This document shows, in pieces, positions 14,302-23,119 of a DNA stretch of 37,650 nucleotides. The DNA is from Actinobacteria bacterium UBA7524 (GTDB lineage Bacteria; Actinomycetota; Coriobacteriia; Anaerosomatales; UBA912): contig DLMY01000044.1 in NCBI GenBank assembly GCA_002478275.1, forward strand, positions 1-37,650, in the 5' to 3' direction. Position 1 is the first letter of the stretch; the number at the start of each line of letters is the position of its first letter. The position numbers and the translations under genes are program-made. The notes under the pieces are model-generated. The model searched no databases. It worked only from the letters and a program-made list of their open reading frames with translations, and was not told where the DNA came from.

Positions 14302-15153
14302 TCAGTAGACCTTCGGCACGAACGTCTGCGTGTCGATCGGCGGGCGGATGTAGGCGTTGCTCGCCGGAGCACGGGGCGGCAGCTCGATGGGTTCGGGCAC
14401 GACGTCCTGGTAGGGTATCTGCGTGAGCAGGTGGTGGATGCAGTTGAGACGGGCGCGCTTCTTCTCCTCGCCGTCGACCACCCACCACGGGCACTCCTTG
14501 GTGTCGGTGTACTTGAACATCTCGTCTTTGGCGCGGGAGTACTCCTCCCACCTGTCACGACCCTCGATGTCCATCTCGGAGAGCTTCCAGAACTTCGCCG
14601 GGTTGTTGATGCGGTCGCGAAAGCGGCGGTCCTGTTCCTCGTCGGAGACTGAGAACCAGTACTTGATCACCACGATGCCGCTGCGAACCAGCATGCGCTC
14701 GAACTCGGGGCAGTCGCGGAAGAACTCGGCCACCTGCTCCTCTGTGCAAAACCCCATGACCCGCTCGACGCCGGCGCGGTTGTACCACGAGCGGTCGAAC
14801 ACCACGATCTCACCGGCCGCGGGCAGGTGGGAGATGTAGCGCTGGAAGTACCACTGCGAGTCCTCGCGCTCGGTCGGCGCCGGCAGAGCGACGACGCGGC
14901 AGACGCGAGGATTGAGAGCCTCGGTGATCCGCTTGATCGCCCCGCCCTTGCCGGCGGCGTCGCGTCCCTCGAACACCACGACCACCTTGAGGCCCTTGAG
15001 CTTGACCCACTCCTGCAGCTTCACGAGCTCGATCTGGAGTCTGGAAAGTTCCTCGAAGTAGAAGGACTTGTCGAGTTTGCCGCGCTTGCGTTCCTCGACA
15101 TCTGCAGCGACGAACTGCGCGGGCGCGCCTTCGGCCTTGGGGTTTTTCGACAT
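14302..15153 (-). CDS. ppk2: Polyphosphate kinase 2
   Basis: FEGRDAAGKGG P-loop, QWYFQRY, FDRSWYNRAGVERVMGFC, KKRARLNCI. Confidence 0.97.
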   Translation of the reverse strand: MSKNPKAEGAPAQFVAADVEERKRGKLDKSFYFEELSRLQIELVKLQEWVKLKGLKVVVVFEGRDAAGKGGAIKRITEALNPRVCRVVALPAPTEREDSQWYFQRYISHLPAAGEIVVFDRSWYNRAGVERVMGFCTEEQVAEFFRDCPEFERMLVRSGIVVIKYWFSVSDEEQDRRFRDRINNPAKFWKLSEMDIEGRDRWEEYSRAKDEMFKYTDTKECPWWVVDGEEKKRARLNCIHHLLTQIPYQDVVPEPIELPPRAPASNAYIRPPIDTQTFVPKVY

Positions 15154-15317
15154 CGAGGCCCTCCTCGGCGAATCGGGACACTGGTGTGTTCGTTCCCTCT
15201 ATCGGTCATCGTAGCAGCGAAAGCAAGGGGCCGGGGCGGGGAAACGGGTAGATAGTCACCGAGCGCGCGCGACCGGGGTGGCGCGTGGCCGGGCGGCGCC
15301 GACAAACGAGGGACCTC

Positions 15318-15479
15318 ATGGCGAAAGACAAGGGCGGCGCGAAGAAGTCCGGCAAGAAGGACTCCGCGCCCGTGTGCGCGATGTGCAAGAACTACCGGCC
15401 GGGCAAGAAGATGTGCGCCAAGCGCGACAAGAAGCGCGCGCCTGACGACAAGGCATGCGACAGCTTCAAGCGCCGCTGA
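15318..15479 (+). CDS. Small Lys-rich four-Cys protein, 53 aa
   Basis: GAGGGA RBS before ATG; Lys codons are AAG-dominated; CxxC-x9-C-x13-C. Confidence 0.7.
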   Translation: MAKDKGGAKKSGKKDSAPVCAMCKNYRPGKKMCAKRDKKRAPDDKACDSFKRR

Positions 15480-15546
15480 CACGCGACCGGCGCCGCGCGG
15501 TGCCGCTGACGCACCGCGGAACGCAACGACAACGGAAGGACCATGC

Positions 15547-16044
15547 ATGACCAACGCGACGACGAGGCTGTACTTCTACCGCCACGCCCCCGCTCTTTCG
15601 CGCTCCGAATGGGACGGGCCCGACAGCGACCGGCCGCTGAGCGACGACGGCATCGCGACGGCGCGGCGTGTGTCGAAGGCGATCGCGAAGATGCACCTCG
15701 ACATCGGCGCGATACTGGCGAGCCCGTACGCCCGCGCATGGCACACCGGCGAGATCCTGGAGGAAGCCCTCGGCTCACCGGGACTGCTTGTCGCCGAGCG
15801 TGGACTCGAACCCTCGGCGTTCGACATCGCCGCCCTCGATCGGATGCTTGCCGCGCACCCCGACGCGCCATCGCTCATGCTGATCGGCCACGAGCCGTCG
15901 ATGACCGAGGTCATGAGTGACGTGATCGGCGGAGGAGAGCTCGTCCTCAAGAAGGCCGGATTCGCGCGCATCGACCTGGCGTACGGCGCCTCGCACGCCA
16001 CCGGGATGCTGCGCTGGCTGATGCCGCCGCGGCTGTTGGGGTAG
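15547..16044 (+). CDS. sixA: Phosphohistidine phosphatase SixA
   Basis: LYFYRHA, DSDRPLS..G, SPY.RA..T, LIGHEP, LKKAG. Confidence 0.9.
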   Translation: MTNATTRLYFYRHAPALSRSEWDGPDSDRPLSDDGIATARRVSKAIAKMHLDIGAILASPYARAWHTGEILEEALGSPGLLVAERGLEPSAFDIAALDRMLAAHPDAPSLMLIGHEPSMTEVMSDVIGGGELVLKKAGFARIDLAYGASHATGMLRWLMPPRLLG

Positions 16045-16057
16045 CGCCCGCCCCGCG

Positions 16058-18374
16058 TCACCCCCGCTTGCGCGCGTGCTCCAGGAACCACTCCTGCGCA
16101 TCGAGCCGTTTGTCGCCATCGCGCGCCTCGACCCTGCGGTACGTGCCGTCCGGCATCATCTCGCGCGCCTTGACGTTATCGGCCAGGTACGTCTCAAGCA
16201 CCTCGTTGCGCAGGCGTTCCCTGATACCGGCATCGAGCACCGGGGCGAGCACCTCGACGCGCCGGTCGAGGTTGCGGGTCATCAGGTCGGCGCTGCCGAC
16301 CAGGCAAACCGGCTCACCTGCGTTCTCGAAATGGTAGATGCGCGAGTGCTCCAGGAAGCGCCCGACCACACTGCGCACGGTGATGTTCTCGCTCACGCCC
16401 TGGACACCCGGGCGCAGACAGCACACCCCGCGCACCAGCAGGTCGACCCGCACACCCGCCTGTGAGGCCTCGTAGAGCAGCTCGATGATCGGGCCGTCCG
16501 TCAGTGAGTTCGTCTTGAAGATCATCCGCGCCGGCCTTCCCGCCGCCGCGTGCTCGATCTCCTGGCGGATCAGACGCTCGATGCCCTCGCGGATTCCTCC
16601 CGGCGAGACCAGGAAGTGCCCGTACTCCACGTCGGCCGCGTAGCCGGTCAGGAGGTTGAACAGCTGAGAGGCGTCCTCGGCCATCTGCTCGTTGGCGGTG
16701 AGCAGGTCCAGATCGGTGTATTGCGTCGCGGTCGAGGTGTTGTAGTTGCCCGTCCCCACGTGCACGTAGCGCCTGATGCGCTTGTCTTCGCGCCGCACGA
16801 CCAGCGCGACCTTCGAATGCGTTTTCAGGCCGAGGAGCCCGTACACCACATGCACGCCCTCCTGCTCCAGGGCACGCGCCCAGTCGATATTGCTCTCCTC
16901 GTCAAAACGGGCTTTGAGCTCGACGAGTACCGTGACTTCCTTGCCCTCGCGAGCGGCCTCCAAGAGCGCCTCGACGATCGCCGAGTTCCTGCCCACCCGA
17001 TACAGCGTCATCTTGATGGCCAGCACGTCGGGGTCCTTGGCGGCGAGCCGGACCATGCGCACGACCGGGTCGAAGGACTCGAAGGGGCGATGCAGCAGGA
17101 TGTCGCGGTCCTTGATGACGTTGAACAGATCCACACCGGCGACCGACTGAAGCACCTCGGGCATGGCGGGCACGAACGGGGGGTACTTGAGGTCCGGACG
17201 GTCGAGGTCGCCGAGCATCATCAGGTCGCTGCCGCCCAGAGGCGGGGTGAGCACGACCAGATCGGCGTGTTCGACCTCAAGATTATCGCGCAGGATGGCG
17301 AGCACGGATTCGGGAGTGTCCGGGGTGACGGTCACGCGAACCACGTCGCCGAAACGCCGCCTGCGCACGCCCTCCTCTATGGTCAGCAGCAGGTCGTCGG
17401 CCTCGAGCTCCTGTATCTCGAAATCGGCGTCGCGGGTGACGCGGAAGGGATGCGACTCGACGACCTGCATACCGGGGAACAGCGAGGGAAGATGTGCCGC
17501 GACGATCTGGTCGAGCCACACGAAGTACCGCTCGCGTCCGCGACGCAGTGCCTGGAAGGGCTTGAAGCCGCCACCCGGCGCACCGACATCCACCAGGCGC
17601 GGGAGGACCTTGGGTATCTTGATGCGGGCGAAGTGCTCGTCACCGTCGGCGCTCTGGACGAGCACAGCGAGATTCAGACTCAGGTTCGAGATGTGAGGAA
17701 AGGGCCTGCCCGGATCGAACGCGAGCGGGGTGAGCACGGGGAAGGCAGACTGCTCGAAGTAGTCGTCGGCGGCCATGCGCTGCGCGGTATCCAACGAGTC
17801 GTAATCGAGCAGATGGATGCCTTCCGCGGCCAGTTCGGCAGCCAACTGCGTGTAGACGACACGGCTGCGACGAAGGATCTCCGGTGCCACACGACGCACC
17901 TCGTCGAGCTGCTCCTGGGCGGTACGCCCGTCTTTGGAGACATCCGTGACGTGCGCCTCGACCATCTGACGCAGCCCGGCCACGCGGACCATGTAGAACT
18001 CCGCCATGTTCGAACCGACGATGGCGAGGAACTTCGCACGCTCCAAGAGCGGATTGTCCGCATCCGCCGCCTGGTCCAGCACGCGTTCCTGGAACTTCAG
18101 CAACTCCAACTCGCGGTTCAGGTAAAGCGAGGGGTCGCTCAGGGGAATCGGCTCGGCAGCGGCGCCCNNNNNNNNNNNNNNNNNNNNNNNNNNNNNNNNN
18201 NNNNNNNNNNNNNNNNNNNNNNNNNNNNNNNNNNNNNNNNNNNNNNNNNNNNNNNNNNNNNNNNNNNNNNNNNNNNNNNNNNNNNNNNNNNNNNNNNNNN
18301 NNNNNNNNNNNNNNNNNNCCCTGCCCCGCCTCGGCGGACCCCACTGCCTGCTCCTGCAATCCCTCATCGGCCAT
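16058..18374 (-). CDS. ppk1: Polyphosphate kinase 1 (N-terminus spans an assembly gap)
   Basis: YLNREL..L.FQ.RVL, LTPLAFDP..PFP.ISNLSLN, AIKMTLYR, ELKARFDEE.NI, KTH.K, HVGTGNYN, GRFLEHSR, SADLM.RNLDRRVE. Likely start is ATG 18374 (MADEG.., GGAAGAGG RBS); the frame offset across the N-gap is probably a gap-size artefact. Confidence 0.95.
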
Positions 18375-18483
18375 CGCGCCAACCTCTTCCCGTCGCCAGA
18401 CAACGTGCAGCCGAGGTCAACCCCGACACCCCTGTCATCCTGTATCTTCCCGAACCTGACGCCGCAGCTCACAGTGGCGCAGA

Positions 18484-19530
18484 CTACCCTGCAGCCGGAA
18501 GCTCCAGCGCAGCGCGCAAGACGTGCGGTGGGTGCTCCTGCGCCAGACGCTCGAACGCCGCGAAACGCTCAGCGGCCCGCGAGTCAAGGAGTGCTTCGAC
18601 CTCAACGAGGCCCTCAGCGCTCACGCCGGCGAGACGCGCGGCCTCCGCGCGCTGCGCATCATGCACCATGCCGAGGAACACGTGCAGATCATGCAACTCC
18701 CCGAGGCTGTCCTGGAAGCTCGTGAGGAGAGCGTGCAGCTCGTCGAAGCGCTCCTCGTAGCAGGGAGCGAAGGTCTCGAGCGCGTAGCGCAGGCGCTTGT
18801 AGTCGATGCGCAGTTCGTGCTGACGGTCGTGAGCGGCTTTTCCGAGTGCGGCGGGCTGCGCTTGGGTCACGACCGCGACCCGCTTGACGACCTCAGCCTG
18901 CGCGAANNNNNNNNNNNNNNNNNNNNNNNNNNNNNNNNNNNNNNNNNNNNNNNNNNNNNNNNNNNNNNNNNNNNNNNNNNNNNNNNNNNNNNNNNNNNNN
19001 NNNNNNNNNNNNNNNNNNNNNNNNNNNNNNNNNNNNNNNNNNNNNNNNNNNNNNNNNNNNNNNNNNNNNNTCACGAGCGACTTGAGTTCGCGCCGGCTGG
19101 CCTTCAGGTCGAGTGCGGCAAGACGTTCGTTGAGCGCGCGCAGCTCGTACTCGCGCTGCCCCATGCGGTAGCCCACGAAGAACGTCACCGCCCGACGGCC
19201 TGCCTCATCCAGTTCGGGCTCCATCCGCATGAACGCTTCGATGAAGACATCCGCGTCGCGGACCGGACCGAGCGCACGGGTGATGGCGCGGACACTGCGG
19301 TACCAGGCGCGAAAAGGCTTTCGCGGATAGAGCGGCTCGACCAACCGCATGGCCTCGCGCAGCCTCCGGGAGGCGACGCGCATGTCATGCACGGCGTCGG
19401 CATCCGCACCGGCGCGGGCACGAGCCTCAAGCTCGAACAGTGGCTTCGCTTTGGCAAGCAACAGCCGTGGAGCCGCCTCGGCCATCGGCGTGTGCGCGTT
19501 GACGCCCTCTATCACGTAACGAGATTCCAT
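18484..19530 (-). CDS. CHAD-domain polyphosphate-binding protein (spans an assembly gap)
   Basis: VHDMRVASRRLR, LGPVRDADV, HELRIDYKRLRYALE, QDSLGELHD. Confidence 0.93.
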   Translation of the reverse strand: MESRYVIEGVNAHTPMAEAAPRLLLAKAKPLFELEARARAGADADAVHDMRVASRRLREAMRLVEPLYPRKPFRAWYRSVRAITRALGPVRDADVFIEAFMRMEPELDEAGRRAVTFFVGYRMGQREYELRALNERLAALDLKASRRELKSLVXXXXXXXXXXXXXXXXXXXXXXXXXXXXXXXXXXXXXXXXXXXXXXXXXXXXXXXFAQAEVVKRVAVVTQAQPAALGKAAHDRQHELRIDYKRLRYALETFAPCYEERFDELHALLTSFQDSLGELHDLHVFLGMVHDAQRAEAARLAGVSAEGLVEVEALLDSRAAERFAAFERLAQEHPPHVLRAALELPAAG

Positions 19531-19575
19531 ACCGCGATGGTACCCGCAAGCAGTCGCTTCATCGCGCACCGCGAG

Positions 19576-19706
19576 CTGTGGATTCTGGGGATACTGTGGA
19601 TAATCACCGCAGCTCAGACCGGTCGAATGCCACAACCGACCGCTCGTCACAAAGTCACAAGAAGTTCGCGAATTGGTGTTGATTCTTGTGTGCGATGGAG
19701 CATAAT
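19576..19706 (+). promoter_or_regulatory. DnaA-box-like tandem plus sigma70-type promoter
   Basis: CTGTGGATT-CTGGGGATA-CTGTGGATAA, with a perfect TGTGGATAA at 19595-19603; TTGATT (19679)-16-CATAAT (19701). Confidence 0.6.
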
Positions 19707-19712
19707 CCCTAT

Positions 19713-19789
19713 TGCGAGGTCGTTGAAGAACTCGGATGGGCCAGCAGCCGCAAGGTGAAGGTTCGCTCGGGAGATGCAGCGGCCTCGCA
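19713..19789 (+). ncRNA. Candidate ~77-nt structured small RNA, copy 1, family not recognised
   Basis: Starts 6 nt after CATAAT; 13-bp closing stem UGCGAGGUCGUUG/CAGCGGCCUCGCA; inner helices capped by a GCAA tetraloop with an AGCA/GAA internal loop; followed by CCTTTGTGT. Confidence 0.65.
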
Positions 19790-19832
19790 CCTTTGTGTGG
19801 GGGTCACGTAGCGCGTGAAGTCGAGTCCTCAC

Positions 19833-20384
19833 TCACCTTTCTCGCGAGAGCTCGCTCAAGAACCCAGGCAGTTGACGGCCAAGTTTGCTCAAATACTCCT
19901 CGACAGACATCGGCGGGTTCCGAAGTGCCCGGACCGCCGCATTCACTGCCGACTGGACGCCCTCTAGGTCCTCCCGCAGTAGTTCGAGCAGAAAGCGGTC
20001 GGGCGAGAGGACACTTGCAGATGTCACCCGCCGGCAGAGGTCTTGCGGGAAGTCGCTCAGATTCAACGTCACCAGCACATCGGCTGACGTGGCCACCGCC
20101 ACGGCGAGCACGTGCTCGTCGTCCCGGTCCGGAAGGTTCGCGGCCGTGACACAGGAGGGCTCGACCATCGCATTCGGAAACGCCTCGACCATCAGCGCCT
20201 TGAGTCGGATCAGCCTGTCAGGCGGGATATCAGGTCTCGTGCGTGCCAGAGCATGCACCATCTCATCGAGTATCCGATCGGACCACCGAAGCGACAGCAG
20301 CCCCGCCTCCCCACAGCGCAGCAGAAGATCTCGCAGGGCGGCCGAGTAGAGCACGCACGCATCGGGCACAACAACCCGAGCCAT
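19833..20384 (-). CDS. PIN-domain protein (VapC50-like toxin)
   Basis: VVPDACVLY...LRDLLL, WSDRILDE, LPD.DD.HVLA.A, LVTLNLSDFP, L.NPPMS. Confidence 0.88.
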   Translation of the reverse strand: MARVVVPDACVLYSAALRDLLLRCGEAGLLSLRWSDRILDEMVHALARTRPDIPPDRLIRLKALMVEAFPNAMVEPSCVTAANLPDRDDEHVLAVAVATSADVLVTLNLSDFPQDLCRRVTSASVLSPDRFLLELLREDLEGVQSAVNAAVRALRNPPMSVEEYLSKLGRQLPGFLSELSRER

Positions 20385-20770
20385 CAGTACAATCCGAGAT
20401 CCTGGGACTCCGCAGATAACTGAGCGAGGGCGCGCCTTCGCTTGTAGGCGAGGACGTCCTCAACGCTGACTCTCCGGTGGCTGCCAACCCTGTAGAAAGG
20501 CATCTGACCCATCTCAAGCAGCTTGATCAGATGCGGGCGCGAAACCCCCAGTAAGTCAGCTGCCGCCTGAGTACTGAGGTCGTGGTCGAGCTCTATTACC
20601 GCAGCCTCGCCCCCCTCGGCCACGATCGACAGGACTTCGCGGGTGAGGCGGTATACATCTGCAGGGGCATCAATCGGACGCCCTTCATCGTCTGCCAGCG
20701 TGATTCGTAAGCCCTCGATACCGGGCTTCTCTCGTCTATCGTCTTTGACGCGATGCCGGGCGCTCATCAC
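20384..20770 (-). CDS. Excisionase-like HTH protein, putative antitoxin
   Basis: LSTQAAADLLGVSRPHLIKLLE.G..PF.RVGSHRRV..EDVLAYK..L..L..ESQDLGLY; coupled to the PIN gene. Confidence 0.88.
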   Translation of the reverse strand: MMSARHRVKDDRREKPGIEGLRITLADDEGRPIDAPADVYRLTREVLSIVAEGGEAAVIELDHDLSTQAAADLLGVSRPHLIKLLEMGQMPFYRVGSHRRVSVEDVLAYKRRRALAQLSAESQDLGLY

Positions 20771-20795
20771 CTAGACTCCTTCGGCTCATAATCAC

Positions 20796-20836
20796 ATCAT
20801 ACGCAATAACCGAACTCAACGCAATATCCGCAATTA
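20796..20836 (-). promoter_or_regulatory. Promoter covered by four 9-bp tandem repeats
   Basis: Minus strand TTGCGT-17-TATGAT; ACGCAATAA/CCGAACTCA/ACGCAATAT/CCGCAATTA at 20801-20836. Confidence 0.7.
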
Positions 20837-20916
20837 GAGACTGAAGGGAAACCTCGCCCTGTGACAGCGCGGGTATATACATCCTGCTACCTACATGGCT
20901 ACTGAAGGGAGGAGCC

Positions 20917-21906
20917 ATGTCTGCGCGCAAGAGAGCTGGACAGATCGCTCTTGCCGTCGCGCTCTTCACCCTGTCGGTCACTCCGGCCATCGCCGCTCCG
21001 CGAGCATCCACCGGGGTCATCGCTCTCGAGGTCCAAGGCACCGACGGACTGCCCGTCGAAGGCGCATCGGTCAAGGTGAGTGAACTGAAGGGGCGTCAAT
21101 ACAAACCCGTGGCCGAAGTACTCTCGAACGCCGAAGGCGAGGTCGAACTCGCCGTGAAAGCGGGTTCGTACGAGCTCACAATCGATGCTCCCGATGCCGA
21201 TACCGCGGTGCTATACACACAGGTGCAGCGCCAGGAGAGCACCTCTCTCGAGGTCACACTTCAGTCCTACGGTGGCGTCGCCGGAACGCTTGCTGACGCC
21301 GAGACCGGAGATCCCATCGTCGGCGCGATCGCGGAGTTCTACCTCCAAGACACGGACGGCTCGTGGTCCGATACGCCGACCTTCACCGTGACGGCCACGG
21401 ATGGCACCTACTCGACCGGACCGATCCCGGCCGGATCGTACCGGGTCCGAGGAACAGCGTCCGGGTACGCACCCCGGTACTTCGACGGTGTGGGCCTGGG
21501 TTCGCCGACGGTCGTCGTGAACAGAGGTGACGAGATCACCGGCGTGGACATCTCGCTCACGCGCCTTGCGGAGAGCGGGCGCATCTCCGGTCGGGTGGTT
21601 TCGGGAGCATCCGAGACACCGCTCGCTTCGGCCTACGTGCTGATCTACAAGCAGAACTCCGACGGCAGTTGGCCGGCGACCACTCCGGGCTGGGGAACCA
21701 CGTTCCATGCGGTGCAGACCGGCCCCGCAGGCACGTACGAGACGGGCGATCTGCCGTTCGGCAACTACAAGGTGCGCTTCTTCACGGTACACACGGGCAG
21801 CCAGTGGTGGGAGTACGTCGCTACGGTCGACCTTGCGACAGTTCTGACCATCGACACGGCGGAACAGAGGCTCGATGGGATCGACGGCTGGTTCGGCAAG
21901 CCCTGA
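20917..21906 (+). CDS. Secreted protein with three carboxypeptidase-regulatory-like beta-sandwich repeats
   Basis: Signal peptide ending PAIA; repeated G.I.G.V....G.P..GA.V ... G.Y....P.G.Y.V pattern; GGAGGAG RBS. Confidence 0.8.
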   Translation: MSARKRAGQIALAVALFTLSVTPAIAAPRASTGVIALEVQGTDGLPVEGASVKVSELKGRQYKPVAEVLSNAEGEVELAVKAGSYELTIDAPDADTAVLYTQVQRQESTSLEVTLQSYGGVAGTLADAETGDPIVGAIAEFYLQDTDGSWSDTPTFTVTATDGTYSTGPIPAGSYRVRGTASGYAPRYFDGVGLGSPTVVVNRGDEITGVDISLTRLAESGRISGRVVSGASETPLASAYVLIYKQNSDGSWPATTPGWGTTFHAVQTGPAGTYETGDLPFGNYKVRFFTVHTGSQWWEYVATVDLATVLTIDTAEQRLDGIDGWFGKP

Positions 21907-21912
21907 TCGCCC

Positions 21913-22135
21913 CTGTGGATTCTGGGGATACTGTGGATAATCACCGCAGCTCAGACCGGTCGAATGCCGCAAGCGACCGCCCGTCACAAAGTCGCGATGA
22001 CTTCGCCAATTGGTGTTGATTCCTGCTCGGGTCGGAGCATAATAACTCTTGCGAGGTCGTTGAAGAACTCGGATGGGCCAGAAGCCGCAAGGTGAAGGTT
22101 CGCTCGAGAGACACAGCGGCCTCGCACCTTTGTGT
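21913..22135 (+). repeat. 223-bp non-coding element, copy 2
   Basis: Colinear with 19576-19798. Confidence 0.95.
22050..22126 (+). ncRNA. Candidate ~77-nt structured small RNA, copy 2
   Basis: 4 differences from copy 1: three in loops and one U-G to U-A pair change. Confidence 0.65.
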
Positions 22136-22228
22136 CCGCTGTCCGCAACTCGCCCGCGAATGGGCGCGGAGCGCGCGAGGCGTGACCGCAGATCCTCCCG
22201 CAGCGCATTCCCCTCGTCGACCCATCTC

Positions 22229-22257
22229 TCAGCATATCTGATATTCTGATATACTGA
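22229..22257 (+). promoter_or_regulatory. Putative operator and -10 of the AbrB-PIN operon
   Basis: ATATCTGA-TATTCTGA-TATACTGA 8-bp periodic repeats containing TATACT, with an inverted TCAG upstream. Confidence 0.5.
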
Positions 22258-22277
22258 CGCCGAAGCGAGGTGATCCG

Positions 22278-22574
22278 ATGACCGAGTACATCCGCATGGG
22301 CAAGCGCGGCACGATCGTCGTACCTGCAGACCTGCGGCGCCGGTATGGCCTGGACGAGGGCGAGATGCTGGCGATGGAGGTCTGCCCCGAGGGCCTACTT
22401 CTCAAGCCAGTCCGCGCCCTGGAAGTCGAGGTCTACACGCCCGAGCGCTCCGCCGAGTTCATCCTCAACAGCGCGGTCGATGCGGCAGAGTACGATGCGG
22501 CGCTCGAAGAGGTGCGTTCGATGGGGATCGATCCCGACACTATCCCGCATCAGCCTCGGCCGGCTTCGAAGTAG
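22278..22574 (+). CDS. AbrB/MazE/SpoVT-type antitoxin
   Basis: MGKRGTIVVPADLRRRYGLDEGE.L......GLLLKP. Confidence 0.88.
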   Translation: MTEYIRMGKRGTIVVPADLRRRYGLDEGEMLAMEVCPEGLLLKPVRALEVEVYTPERSAEFILNSAVDAAEYDAALEEVRSMGIDPDTIPHQPRPASK

Positions 22575-22580
22575 GGCCGG

Positions 22581-22979
22581 ATGGAGCGGGTCTTCCTCGA
22601 TGCGAACATCTTGGTCTCGGCGGCCCTGAAGCCCGATTCCGGGATCGCAGGACTCTGGAGGCTGAAGGGAGTCCGCCTCATCGCCTCACCCTACGTACTC
22701 GCCGAGGCGCGACGGAACGTCCACTCCCCGGAGGCCGCAGACAGACTGGAGTCCTTCATCGCGGACCTGGCCGTCCTGCCGAGCGAACCTGCGGACTTCC
22801 CGCTCGACGAGGACCCCGGCCTACCGGACAAGGACCTCCCCGTCCTGCTCGCGGCGATCGTCGCCCACGCAGACTACCTGCTGACCGGGGACTTGTCGCA
22901 TTTCAGCACATGCATGGGTCGCGCCATCCAGGGAGTGACGACTCTGCTGCCAGGCGACTACCTCAGATCGCGCCGATAA
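22581..22979 (+). CDS. PIN-domain toxin
   Basis: RVFLDANILVSA, LAEA.RN, LPDKD.PVL.AA...ADYLLTGD..HF. Confidence 0.88.
   Translation: MERVFLDANILVSAALKPDSGIAGLWRLKGVRLIASPYVLAEARRNVHSPEAADRLESFIADLAVLPSEPADFPLDEDPGLPDKDLPVLLAAIVAHADYLLTGDLSHFSTCMGRAIQGVTTLLPGDYLRSRR

Positions 22980-23042: not shown

Positions 23043-23119
<77 letters not shown>

Follow-up and report, generated by a model that had tools for sequence, protein, structure and literature searches.

A duplicated DnaA-box, promoter and hairpin unit points to a structured small RNA family in a single order of uncultured bacteria of the Coriobacteriia type

RESULTS

The window, i.e., the whole 37,650-nt stretch of DNA analyzed here, carries a 223-nt unit in two copies (copy A, 19576 to 19798; copy B, 21913 to 22135), which are 90% identical, are offset by 2337 nt, and form the one two-copy family found in a repeat search of the window. 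Outside the unit, the copies cease to resemble each other on both flanks, and the repeat search found no terminal inverted repeats bounding it. According to Pfam, the cargo separating the copies (19833 to 21906, mixed strands), which lies outside the RNA unit, encodes a PIN_3 (PF13470) protein beside copy A (19833 to 20384, minus strand), an HTH_17 protein (20384 to 20770, minus strand), and a secreted protein with CarboxypepD_reg repeats (20917 to 21906, plus strand). A second PIN_3 gene lies beside copy B (22581 to 22979, plus strand), in agreement with the original prediction that each copy adjoins a PIN operon.

Both units are oriented on the plus strand and have the same layout. In copy A, a trimer of head-to-tail DnaA-type 9-mers (TGTGGATTC, TGGGGATAC, and TGTGGATAA; 19577 to 19603) is followed by the motif CCGyTCGnCA (19640 to 19649), about 60 nt 5' of the predicted RNA start, by a predicted promoter (19679 to 19706; TTGATT at 19679 to 19684, a 16-nt spacer, and CATAAT at 19701 to 19706), and by the RNA itself (19712 to 19798; hairpin at 19713 to 19789, U-rich tail at 19790 to 19798). 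Copy B has the same 27 trimer bases (21914 to 21940), the motif in the form CCGCCCGTCA (21977 to 21986), the same TTGATT-16-CATAAT promoter (22016 to 22043), and the RNA (22049 to 22135; hairpin at 22050 to 22126, plus tail). A base count showed that the copies differ at 23 of 223 positions: none in the trimer (0/27), 9/75 between the trimer and the −35 hexamer, none in TTGATT or CATAAT (0/6 each), 7/16 in the promoter spacer, 3/6 in the discriminator, 4/77 in the hairpin (three in loops and one U-G to U-A change), and none in the tail (0/9). This recount exactly reproduced the previously noted copy spacing and the divergence given for the spacer, hexamers, and RNA. Copies A and B are an old local duplication, each copy of which is maintained by selection.

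The promoters of copies A and B were the only two sigma-70-like sites found between 19400 and 22400 (mean of 0.5 in shuffled sequences), and the RNA of each copy thus appears to have its own promoter directly 5' of it, as for a stand-alone sRNA gene. In an alignment of the upstream regions of 47 unique loci of the family described below, the hexamers were conserved (consensus TTGCA and cAnAAT or TAGTAT) and the spacers were variable. The CCGyTCGnCA motif was conserved family-wide, including in members without the trimer; it is too short for a search elsewhere in the genome to give an informative result. At the 3' end, a conserved CyUUUGUG tail comes after the closing stem and marks the end of conservation. 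The hairpin was not flagged by a simple terminator scan, the enclosed "loop" being larger than the limit of the scan, and the 13-bp closing stem with its U-tract looks like an intrinsic terminator of the RNA's own. Judged from the promoter and terminator-like features, the transcript would be about 85 nt long.

On the plus strand, copies A and B folded into one rod (−40.7 and −40.8 kcal/mol; z = −3.5), with 0/200 and 1/200 shuffled sequences, respectively, being as stable. No good fold was obtained for the minus strand (z = −0.6 and −0.4), and the single long rod that had been described was therefore recovered on the plus strand only. The approximately 77-nt rod consists of a G+C-rich, 13-bp closing stem, a purine-rich basal internal loop (consensus AAGAA versus GGAnn), which we read as tandem sheared G-A pairs, an invariant, wobble-rich helix (UGGGC/GUUCG) with a bulged A, and an apical part with a variable A-rich/GA asymmetric loop below a GCAA (GNRA-type) cap. 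The basal loop was symmetric in 39 of 40 distinct sequences (5×5 in 22 and 4×4 in 17), and its 3' strand often resembles a Shine-Dalgarno sequence (GGAGGA or GGGGGA). The longest conserved unpaired run in the RNA is 5 nt. A small open reading frame was rejected, as 1-base indels between copies shift the frame after a near-invariant AUG.

The apical loop was also compared with the sarcin-ricin/loop E (bulged-G) motif, in which AGUA lies opposite GAA. The loop reads AGCA/GAA in copy A and AGAA/GAA in copy B, and some members have AGUA, AGAA, or AGCA opposite (U)GAA, 3 bp below the GNRA cap. Among the 40 distinct sequences, however, the A-G-N-A strand was present in only 18, AGUA in only 6, and the GAA strand in 22, with varying strand lengths. 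A sarcin-ricin-like loop, as originally proposed, therefore finds no support as a shared feature of the family.

Searching the whole window with Rfam 15 at the gathering score returned only tRNA-Met. With all 4227 families, the region from 19400 to 22400 gave three weak matches at E ≤ 10, none of them over the element, and 20 related loci gave a single unrelated 29.6-bit match at E ≤ 1, away from the RNA. The bacterial small SRP RNA (RF00169) is similar in being a rod of about 90 nt with purine-rich internal loops and a GNRA cap; however, the true SRP RNA of this genome was found on contig C10 (84214 to 84307; 68.4 bits), the element had no SRP match at E ≤ 10, and three copies and a patchy spread do not suit an essential RNA. 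Another short, highly structured, conserved sRNA of Actinomycetota that runs from promoter to terminator is 6C RNA (presumably Rfam RF01066), which has two hairpins with C-rich loops, unlike the one rod with purine-rich loops seen here, over which no Rfam family matched at E ≤ 10. A CsrA sponge acting through GGA motifs and a Y-RNA were also rejected, as the genome, which is 83% complete, yielded neither CsrA (PF02599) nor Ro/TROVE (PF05731).

A covariance model of the RNA (R1) scored 97.9 bits for copy A and 102 bits for copy B, and detected a third copy on a different contig of the same genome, making three in total. At E ≤ 0.001, R1 matches were present in 36 of the 146 genomes searched from the order to which this genome belongs, with 1 to 4 copies each, often in tandem. 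No credible match was obtained in the class and phylum samples outside the order, where two weak matches were plain terminator hairpins and one lay in coding-like DNA; in the samples searched, the family was found only in this one order of uncultured Coriobacteriia-type bacteria. Presence was patchy even inside a family, with the RNA missing from 2 of 4 sister genomes. One genome of the order has a short hairpin whose membership is doubtful. All 17 metagenome stretches caught by a strict pattern were R1 matches (72 to 102 bits), and when a looser pattern was applied to genome contigs, 14 of 80 loci among the matches listed had R1 matches (15 matches), the others being chance. Two pattern matches in viral contigs were both spurious by the model, and blastn of the unit against plasmid and phage collections gave no match.

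The fold was preserved by compensatory changes. RNAalifold gave 27 pairs, with compensatory change in 10. In alignment A3, 95.1% of cells were paired, compared to only 30 to 45% when the partners were slid, and 13 of 27 pairs had changed on both sides, a level reached by 0/500 shuffles. In alignment A4, made of sequences outside the model-building set, 92.4% of cells were paired and 7 pairs had changed on both sides. Antisense model matches (two rows of A3 and one of A4) were kept in these pair counts and removed from the loop counts, and since the two classes of loop size, like much of the covariation, track phylogeny, the number of independent events is lower than the cell counts would imply. 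The RNA therefore has the conserved, compensated secondary structure of a stand-alone sRNA gene and is itself under selection. Together with the Rfam results, this supports the original prediction of an unrecognized small RNA gene family.

The three DnaA-type 9-mers abut each other with a 9-bp period upstream of each promoter in the window. The third box, a perfect TGTGGATAA, occurs five times in the 1.8-Mb genome, twice in the window units and twice upstream of dnaA. Clusters of at least three boxes (≤1 mismatch) within 500 bp were found at two places in the genome, the rpmH-dnaA region and the third RNA copy. The rpmH-dnaA origin region (contig C19) is filled with the same box core, including tandem, 9-bp-spaced pairs, and the putative boxes of the unit thus fit both the DnaA-box consensus and the type present at the organism's own origin. 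The exact trimer pattern matched 30 times in the 146 genomes of the order, in all 30 cases on the same strand as an R1 match and 100 to 140 nt upstream of it, while a reversed trimer pattern used as a control matched twice. No box array without the RNA was found by this search. In a phylum sample of 400 other genomes, the trimer matched five times in five genomes, with no R1 match beside any of them; by our reading, most of these matches lie in coding repeats.

At least three direct boxes were present at 29 of the 47 unique loci, with one lineage having a box spacing of 12 nt, not 9 nt. No DnaA-like boxes were found at 17 of the 47 loci, among them whole families of the order, and DnaA control is therefore not essential to the function of the RNA. 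The trimer lies far upstream of the −35 hexamer, and the trimer-promoter distances fall into two classes 13 bp apart, which would fit poorly with strict face-of-helix contact.

The recurrent genomic site of the RNA is argS/lysA-RNA-hom, which is syntenic across many families, and the third copy in this genome lies downstream of argS. Copies away from this site occupy variable spots rich in toxin-antitoxin genes. Over all loci examined, Fic was found near 6 of 41 loci and 1 of 17 metagenome loci, ParE near three loci, DUF6036 near two, and RES near one. In four relatives with paired copies, different, unrelated genes lie in between. Pfam searches found no transposase or integrase domain within 1.5 kb of the 41 loci.

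DISCUSSION

We consider it somewhat more likely than not that both 223-nt units are complete, self-contained genes of a new structured sRNA family, one that is probably DnaA-gated and probably protein-binding. Transcription would start at a conserved sigma-A/sigma-70-type promoter, 6 to 8 nt before the base of the hairpin. In the larger sub-clade, the three phased DnaA boxes, located 100 to 135 nt upstream, would tie synthesis of the RNA to DnaA occupancy and thereby to replication-initiation status; we are evenly divided as to whether synthesis does depend on DnaA in this way. The association of the trimers with the RNA and the match to the boxes of the rpmH-dnaA region uphold the originally suggested DnaA control as far as sequence goes. 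The RNA would then bind or titrate a protein rather than seed-pair with mRNAs, a preference that we hold only tentatively, and which stems from the high stability of the RNA and the shortness of its conserved unpaired runs.

A trans-acting base-pairing sRNA, whose purine-rich loops (AAGAA, the GGAGGA-like strand, and the GCAA cap) or melted central helix would pair with mRNAs, e.g., in pyrimidine-rich leaders, and control their translation or stability, is in our view rather unlikely. The stand-alone promoter/terminator layout is typical of such sRNAs, the 3' strand of the internal loop is often Shine-Dalgarno-like, and there is a precedent in CcnA, a cell cycle noncoding RNA of Caulobacter crescentus, which is located at the origin, is presumably activated by CtrA, and pairs with the ctrA and gcrA leaders (PMC8959179). 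As with CcnA, synthesis of the present RNA is proposed to be tied to a master cell cycle or replication regulator; however, the present RNA has no sequence relationship to CcnA, its genes lie elsewhere than at the origin and are associated with DnaA boxes, and it looks ill-suited to seed pairing. A seed of at most 5 nt within a hairpin of −40.7 kcal/mol argues against pairing, as do loop strands that change length together, which is expected of a structured loop and not of a free seed. Nor did the dnaA leader stand out as a target: by a crude full-length duplex energy, 94% of 400 random windows equaled or surpassed it.

It could also be hypothesized that the unit is mainly a DNA element, i.e., an off-origin site that titrates or remodels DnaA in the manner of DnaA-box clusters, datA, or DARS, where a strong transcription unit modulates DnaA binding, e.g., through supercoiling, and the RNA is secondary. 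Three boxes of high similarity in a fixed array, identical in copies A and B and exclusive to RNA units among the 146 genomes of the order, would suit such a role. It is well established that initiation can be tuned by DnaA sites lying outside oriC (PMC4585315 and PMC12371093). However, covariation maintains the fold of the RNA, whole lineages retain the RNA without boxes, and no box array found in the order lacks it, and we regard this explanation as improbable.

For the gene reading that we prefer, the closest parallels on the DNA side are the DnaA-box clusters (DBCs) and sda of Bacillus subtilis, where boxes lie outside oriC and a promoter is DnaA regulated. To our knowledge, the DnaA regulons known to date consist of protein genes. 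The units described here share with the clusters and regulated promoters of B. subtilis and Escherichia coli the consensus-like 9-mers in a direct, close array, off the origin and upstream of a promoter, but the target is the gene of a small structured RNA rather than of a protein. No DnaA-controlled sRNA was found in the literature searched. DnaA ChIP-seq in E. coli (PMC11317965) indicated a preference for closely spaced box pairs and a compact regulon; compared to the E. coli pairs, with gaps of 2 to 3 bp, the boxes here abut, and the array is placed 100 to 135 nt upstream.

The patchy presence of the unit, its 1 to 4 copies per genome, the pairs that flank unrelated cargo in the window and in four relatives, and the frequent toxin-antitoxin-type neighbors (Fic, ParE, DUF6036, and RES) could be explained by a selfish or mobile repeat that spreads itself, or by a recombination landing pad providing homology for cargo insertion. 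We give this little credence, as the unit lacks terminal inverted repeats, the 1.5 kb around each of 41 loci gave no transposase or integrase domain, plasmid and phage collections gave no match, the two viral-contig matches were spurious, and the argS/lysA-RNA-hom site is conserved in many families. The first three of these points are taken, with the low copy number (≤4 per genome), to argue against the unit being the end of a MITE or of an insertion sequence, the latter of which the original prediction had named as a possible outcome. Mobility of this kind is compatible with a cellular function of the RNA.

That the RNA is a cis-acting leader or attenuator of the gene downstream, either hom or the antitoxin-PIN operon 3' of copy B, seems very unlikely, although its closing stem is terminator-like and, in many genomes, hom follows it in the same orientation (e.g., at seven loci, plus three metagenome loci). 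Copy A has a convergent gene downstream and none that is co-oriented, every copy in tandem arrays has a separate promoter, and no alternative antiterminator fold was present. Where hom follows the RNA, it keeps its own TACAAT/TACACT promoter and a leader hairpin before the start codon, on which ground the hom-leader reading was rejected, and in relatives that lack the RNA, lysA and hom meet at a compact junction containing the same hom promoter. Finally, the originally proposed sarcin-ricin-like or tRNA-sized decoy or antidote RNA against neighboring PIN ribonucleases is scarcely credible: although both window copies adjoin PIN_3 genes and have apical loops resembling the bulged-G motif, PIN domains were found in none of 129 open reading frames around 41 other loci and none of 37 around 17 metagenome loci, so that among the loci examined PIN lies beside the two window copies only, the third copy of the same genome follows argS, the A-G-N-A strand occurs in fewer than half of the distinct members, nothing tested supported a tRNA-sized decoy, and the absence of conserved linkage already largely refutes the idea.

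A stand-alone sRNA gene remains our preferred reading. As the most far-reaching version of it, which we regard as speculative and rather doubtful, the unit would sense replication status and respond through an RNA: DnaA filling the boxes would switch a multicopy, protein-titrating hairpin RNA on or off, feeding back on replication, division, or growth. The RNA family would be a candidate Rfam entry from a little-known, mostly uncultured branch of Coriobacteriia, and its symmetric purine loop and invariant, wobble-rich helix make the RNA a defined bait for its partner. The exclusive, phased coupling of the trimer to the sRNA promoter provides a concrete, testable case of DnaA controlling a regulatory RNA. 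If true, such a sensor would give the DnaA regulon an RNA branch, which was not described in the literature searched, and this RNA output of DnaA would offer a simple way to learn how bacteria without classical cell cycle regulators broadcast their replication status.

The two window copies of the RNA unit

A repeat search located two colinear 223-nt units in the window, copy A at 19576-19798 and copy B at 21913-22135, which lie 2337 nt apart, are 90% identical and lose their similarity at both unit borders. A position-by-position count gave 23 differences, spread as the original prediction had described for a duplicated element with uneven divergence: the 27-nt trimer of TGTGGA-type boxes, the TTGATT and CATAAT hexamers and the 9-nt U-rich tail had none, and all fell elsewhere, with 9/75 from the trimer up to the -35, 7/16 in the promoter spacer, 3/6 in the discriminator and 4/77 in the hairpin (three in loops and one changing U-G to U-A). 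Folding of the plus strand gave a single rod for each copy, at -40.7 kcal/mol for A and -40.8 kcal/mol for B (z -3.5), and the minus-strand fold was unremarkable. Within 19400-22400, the only promoter-like sites were two TTGATT-16-CATAAT pairs, one per copy. The duplicated RNA unit is thereby confirmed as an observation, and both window copies are under purifying selection.

Structure and covariation of the hairpin

The covariation proposed as a check on the RNA was found. RNAalifold returned 27 pairs, 10 of them with a compensatory change. Across 42 distinct rows aligned to R1, a covariance model of the hairpin built from 19 sequences, 95.1% of cells were paired and 13/27 pairs had changed on both sides (92.4% and 7 pairs in the metagenome set), counts that exceed the number of independent events because the alignments were model-fitted and the sequences related. 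The rows included two antisense matches that only add noise. None of 500 shuffles reached the 42-row values, and sliding the partners lowered pairing to 30-45%.

At the base of the rod, a 13-bp closing stem leads into a purine-rich internal loop (consensus AAGAA opposite GGAnn). Above it come a 5-bp helix that covaries, an A that is either bulged or mismatched, and a wobble-rich helix that is invariant (UGGGC facing GUUCG). A variable loop follows, A-rich and facing (U)GA(A), and the tip is closed by a CC-GCAA-GG cap, which 32 of the 40 distinct sequences possess. The internal loop was symmetric in 39/40 distinct sequences (5x5 in 22 and 4x4 in 17) and is interpreted as non-canonical pairs stacked around tandem G-A. 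For the variable loop nearer the tip, the sarcin-ricin-like reading proposed at the outset was not supported. Because family conservation stops after the CyUUUGUG tail, the closing stem and tail would most simply form the RNA's own intrinsic terminator, a hairpin that a simple terminator scan cannot score since the enclosed "loop" is too long. The element's hairpin is conserved, covaries and is specific to one strand, and its promoter, likewise conserved, is its own. Neither the element nor 20 of its relatives matched any family described in Rfam 15, in keeping with the idea of an unrecognised small RNA family.

Distribution of the family

BLAST and R1 agreed on exactly three copies in the window's own genome (1.8 Mb, 83% complete), the third lying on contig C30 directly after argS. 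Within the same order, 36/146 genomes carried R1 matches (E<=0.001), with one to four copies each, often in tandem, scattered across many families; the best-sampled family had none in 44 genomes. One of the 36 carriers (G116) has only a short hairpin and is a doubtful member. Partial matches, namely the sole one in G034 and one of two in G139, were true copies truncated by contig ends. Outside the order, two weak matches in the class sample proved to be ordinary terminators, and the single match among 150 other genomes of the phylum (28.7 bits) was spurious and lay in coding-like DNA. A strict pattern scan of metagenome contigs yielded 17 stretches, all of them true members at 72-102 bits. The family now numbers about 80 sequences. 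Among the matches listed from the genome collection, true members were labelled Coriobacteriia, Coriobacteriaceae or Actinomycetota MAGs, with three labelled Eubacteriales. Plasmid and phage collections gave no match to the element.

Promoter and DnaA-type boxes

Alignment of 47 unique upstream regions revealed a -35 (TTGCA) shared across the family, a -10 of cAnAAT/TAGTAT, promoter spacers that vary and, some 60 nt upstream, the motif CCGyTCGnCA. Three direct DnaA-type boxes were present in 29/47 loci, at -135/-126/-117 or -122/-113/-104; one lineage spaced them by 12 nt, and 17/47 loci, including whole families, had none. The reading of these boxes as DnaA sites draws on three observations. 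The window's genome has just five occurrences of the perfect box TGTGGATAA, two in the window units and two upstream of dnaA. Near-perfect boxes clustered in threes or more only in the rpmH-dnaA region, where tandem 9-bp-spaced box pairs are also present, and at the third RNA copy. Finally, the exact trimer pattern had 30 matches across the order's 146 genomes (2 for the reversed control), every one 100-140 nt upstream of a same-strand R1 match. Elsewhere in the phylum, 400 genomes gave five matches to the pattern, none of them adjoining such an RNA. From this and the 30/30 linkage, the trimer is part of the RNA gene. In a large sub-clade, DnaA-type boxes are linked to the RNA exclusively and in phase.

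The likely origin or dnaA promoter region of this genome lies outside the window, on contig C19 at about 61190-61730, between rpmH (minus strand, read from sequence) and dnaA (PF00308 match at C19:63003-63488). DnaA boxes with a TGTGGA core are numerous there, two tandem pairs among them, and a long ORF separates the boxes from dnaA.

Genomic neighbours of the RNA

The original prediction had offered the RNA as a decoy for PIN ribonucleases. This idea was not supported, as Pfam placed PIN domains only beside the two window copies, with none among 129 ORFs at 41 other loci and 37 ORFs at 17 metagenome loci. The recurrent site was instead the argS-lysA-hom cluster, with one or another of these genes adjoining the RNA in at least 13/41 scanned loci and in 5/17 metagenome loci, usually in the order lysA, one to three RNA copies, hom (homoserine dehydrogenase), all on the same strand. 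A role as hom leader was rejected because hom has a TACAAT/TACACT promoter and a leader hairpin to itself, both located after the RNA, and RNA-less relatives retain the same promoter at a compact lysA-hom junction, where R1 found no match even with filters off.

The hom promoter was conserved between RNA and hom in five loci (L010, about 1605-1690; L011, L012, L014 and L053). In the same loci a G+C-rich hairpin, in many cases with GUUCG at its end, immediately precedes the Shine-Dalgarno sequence and may act as a small leader that regulates hom. A second recurrent site followed the ctc (ribosomal protein L25/TL5)-pth operon, in L049 (G016:C1:196672-199760) and metagenome locus L208.

Other copies adjoined toxin-antitoxin-type or variable genes: Fic at 6/41 loci and 1/17 metagenome loci, ParE/Phd at three loci, DUF6036 at two and RES at one. 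The seven loci with a Fic/DOC-family gene (Fic_N + Fic; L004, L031, L035, L042, L048, L117 and L207) span at least three families of the order, and the gene is mostly divergent, transcribed from just beyond the DnaA-box trimer. This adjacency may be fortuitous, arising from location in variable regions, or may mean that control is shared. Paired copies around unrelated cargo also recurred in other genomes, which suggests that cargo was brought in by local duplication, or by recombination at the unit.

In the window, the RNA copies, two toxin-antitoxin pairs and a tRNA-Met (CAT; 23043-23119, minus strand), directly beyond the second PIN operon, make up a small variable island flanked by polyphosphate genes on one side and an MMPL transporter operon on the other. 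Next after copy B is a MazE-like antitoxin/PIN_3 operon (22278-22979); the AT-rich repeat ATATCTGATATTCTGATATACT just upstream (22228-22256) is likely its autoregulatory operator/promoter. The polyphosphate cluster (14302-19650, minus strand) comprises, by Pfam, PPK2 (14302-15153) and a CHAD-domain protein (18484-19650, start probably later); by eye, the 804-aa ORF between them (16058-18472) looks like polyphosphate kinase 1. Bases are withheld (N/X) at several places in this cluster.

Possible function of the RNA

The unit would be a stand-alone sRNA gene with a product of about 85 nt. Identity with SRP RNA was dismissed, the genome having a normal SRP RNA copy elsewhere. We tentatively favour action through protein binding over seed pairing, since the rod is highly stable, its loops act like structured modules and no unpaired run longer than 5 nt is conserved. 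Two candidate partners, CsrA and Ro, were not found in the 83%-complete genome, and a crude duplex test detected no special complementarity between the RNA and the dnaA leader.

Among known systems, DnaA-box clusters and promoters regulated by DnaA come nearest, together with cell-cycle sRNAs such as CcnA (PMC8959179); E. coli DnaA is reported to prefer closely spaced box pairs (PMC11317965). Full-text literature searches found no DnaA-controlled sRNA, nor any account of a motif like this one from Coriobacteriia. On sequence grounds, the element appears to represent a structured sRNA family that is new and whose distinctive promoter is fronted by DnaA boxes, and we consider the chances evenly balanced that DnaA occupancy would tune synthesis of the RNA.
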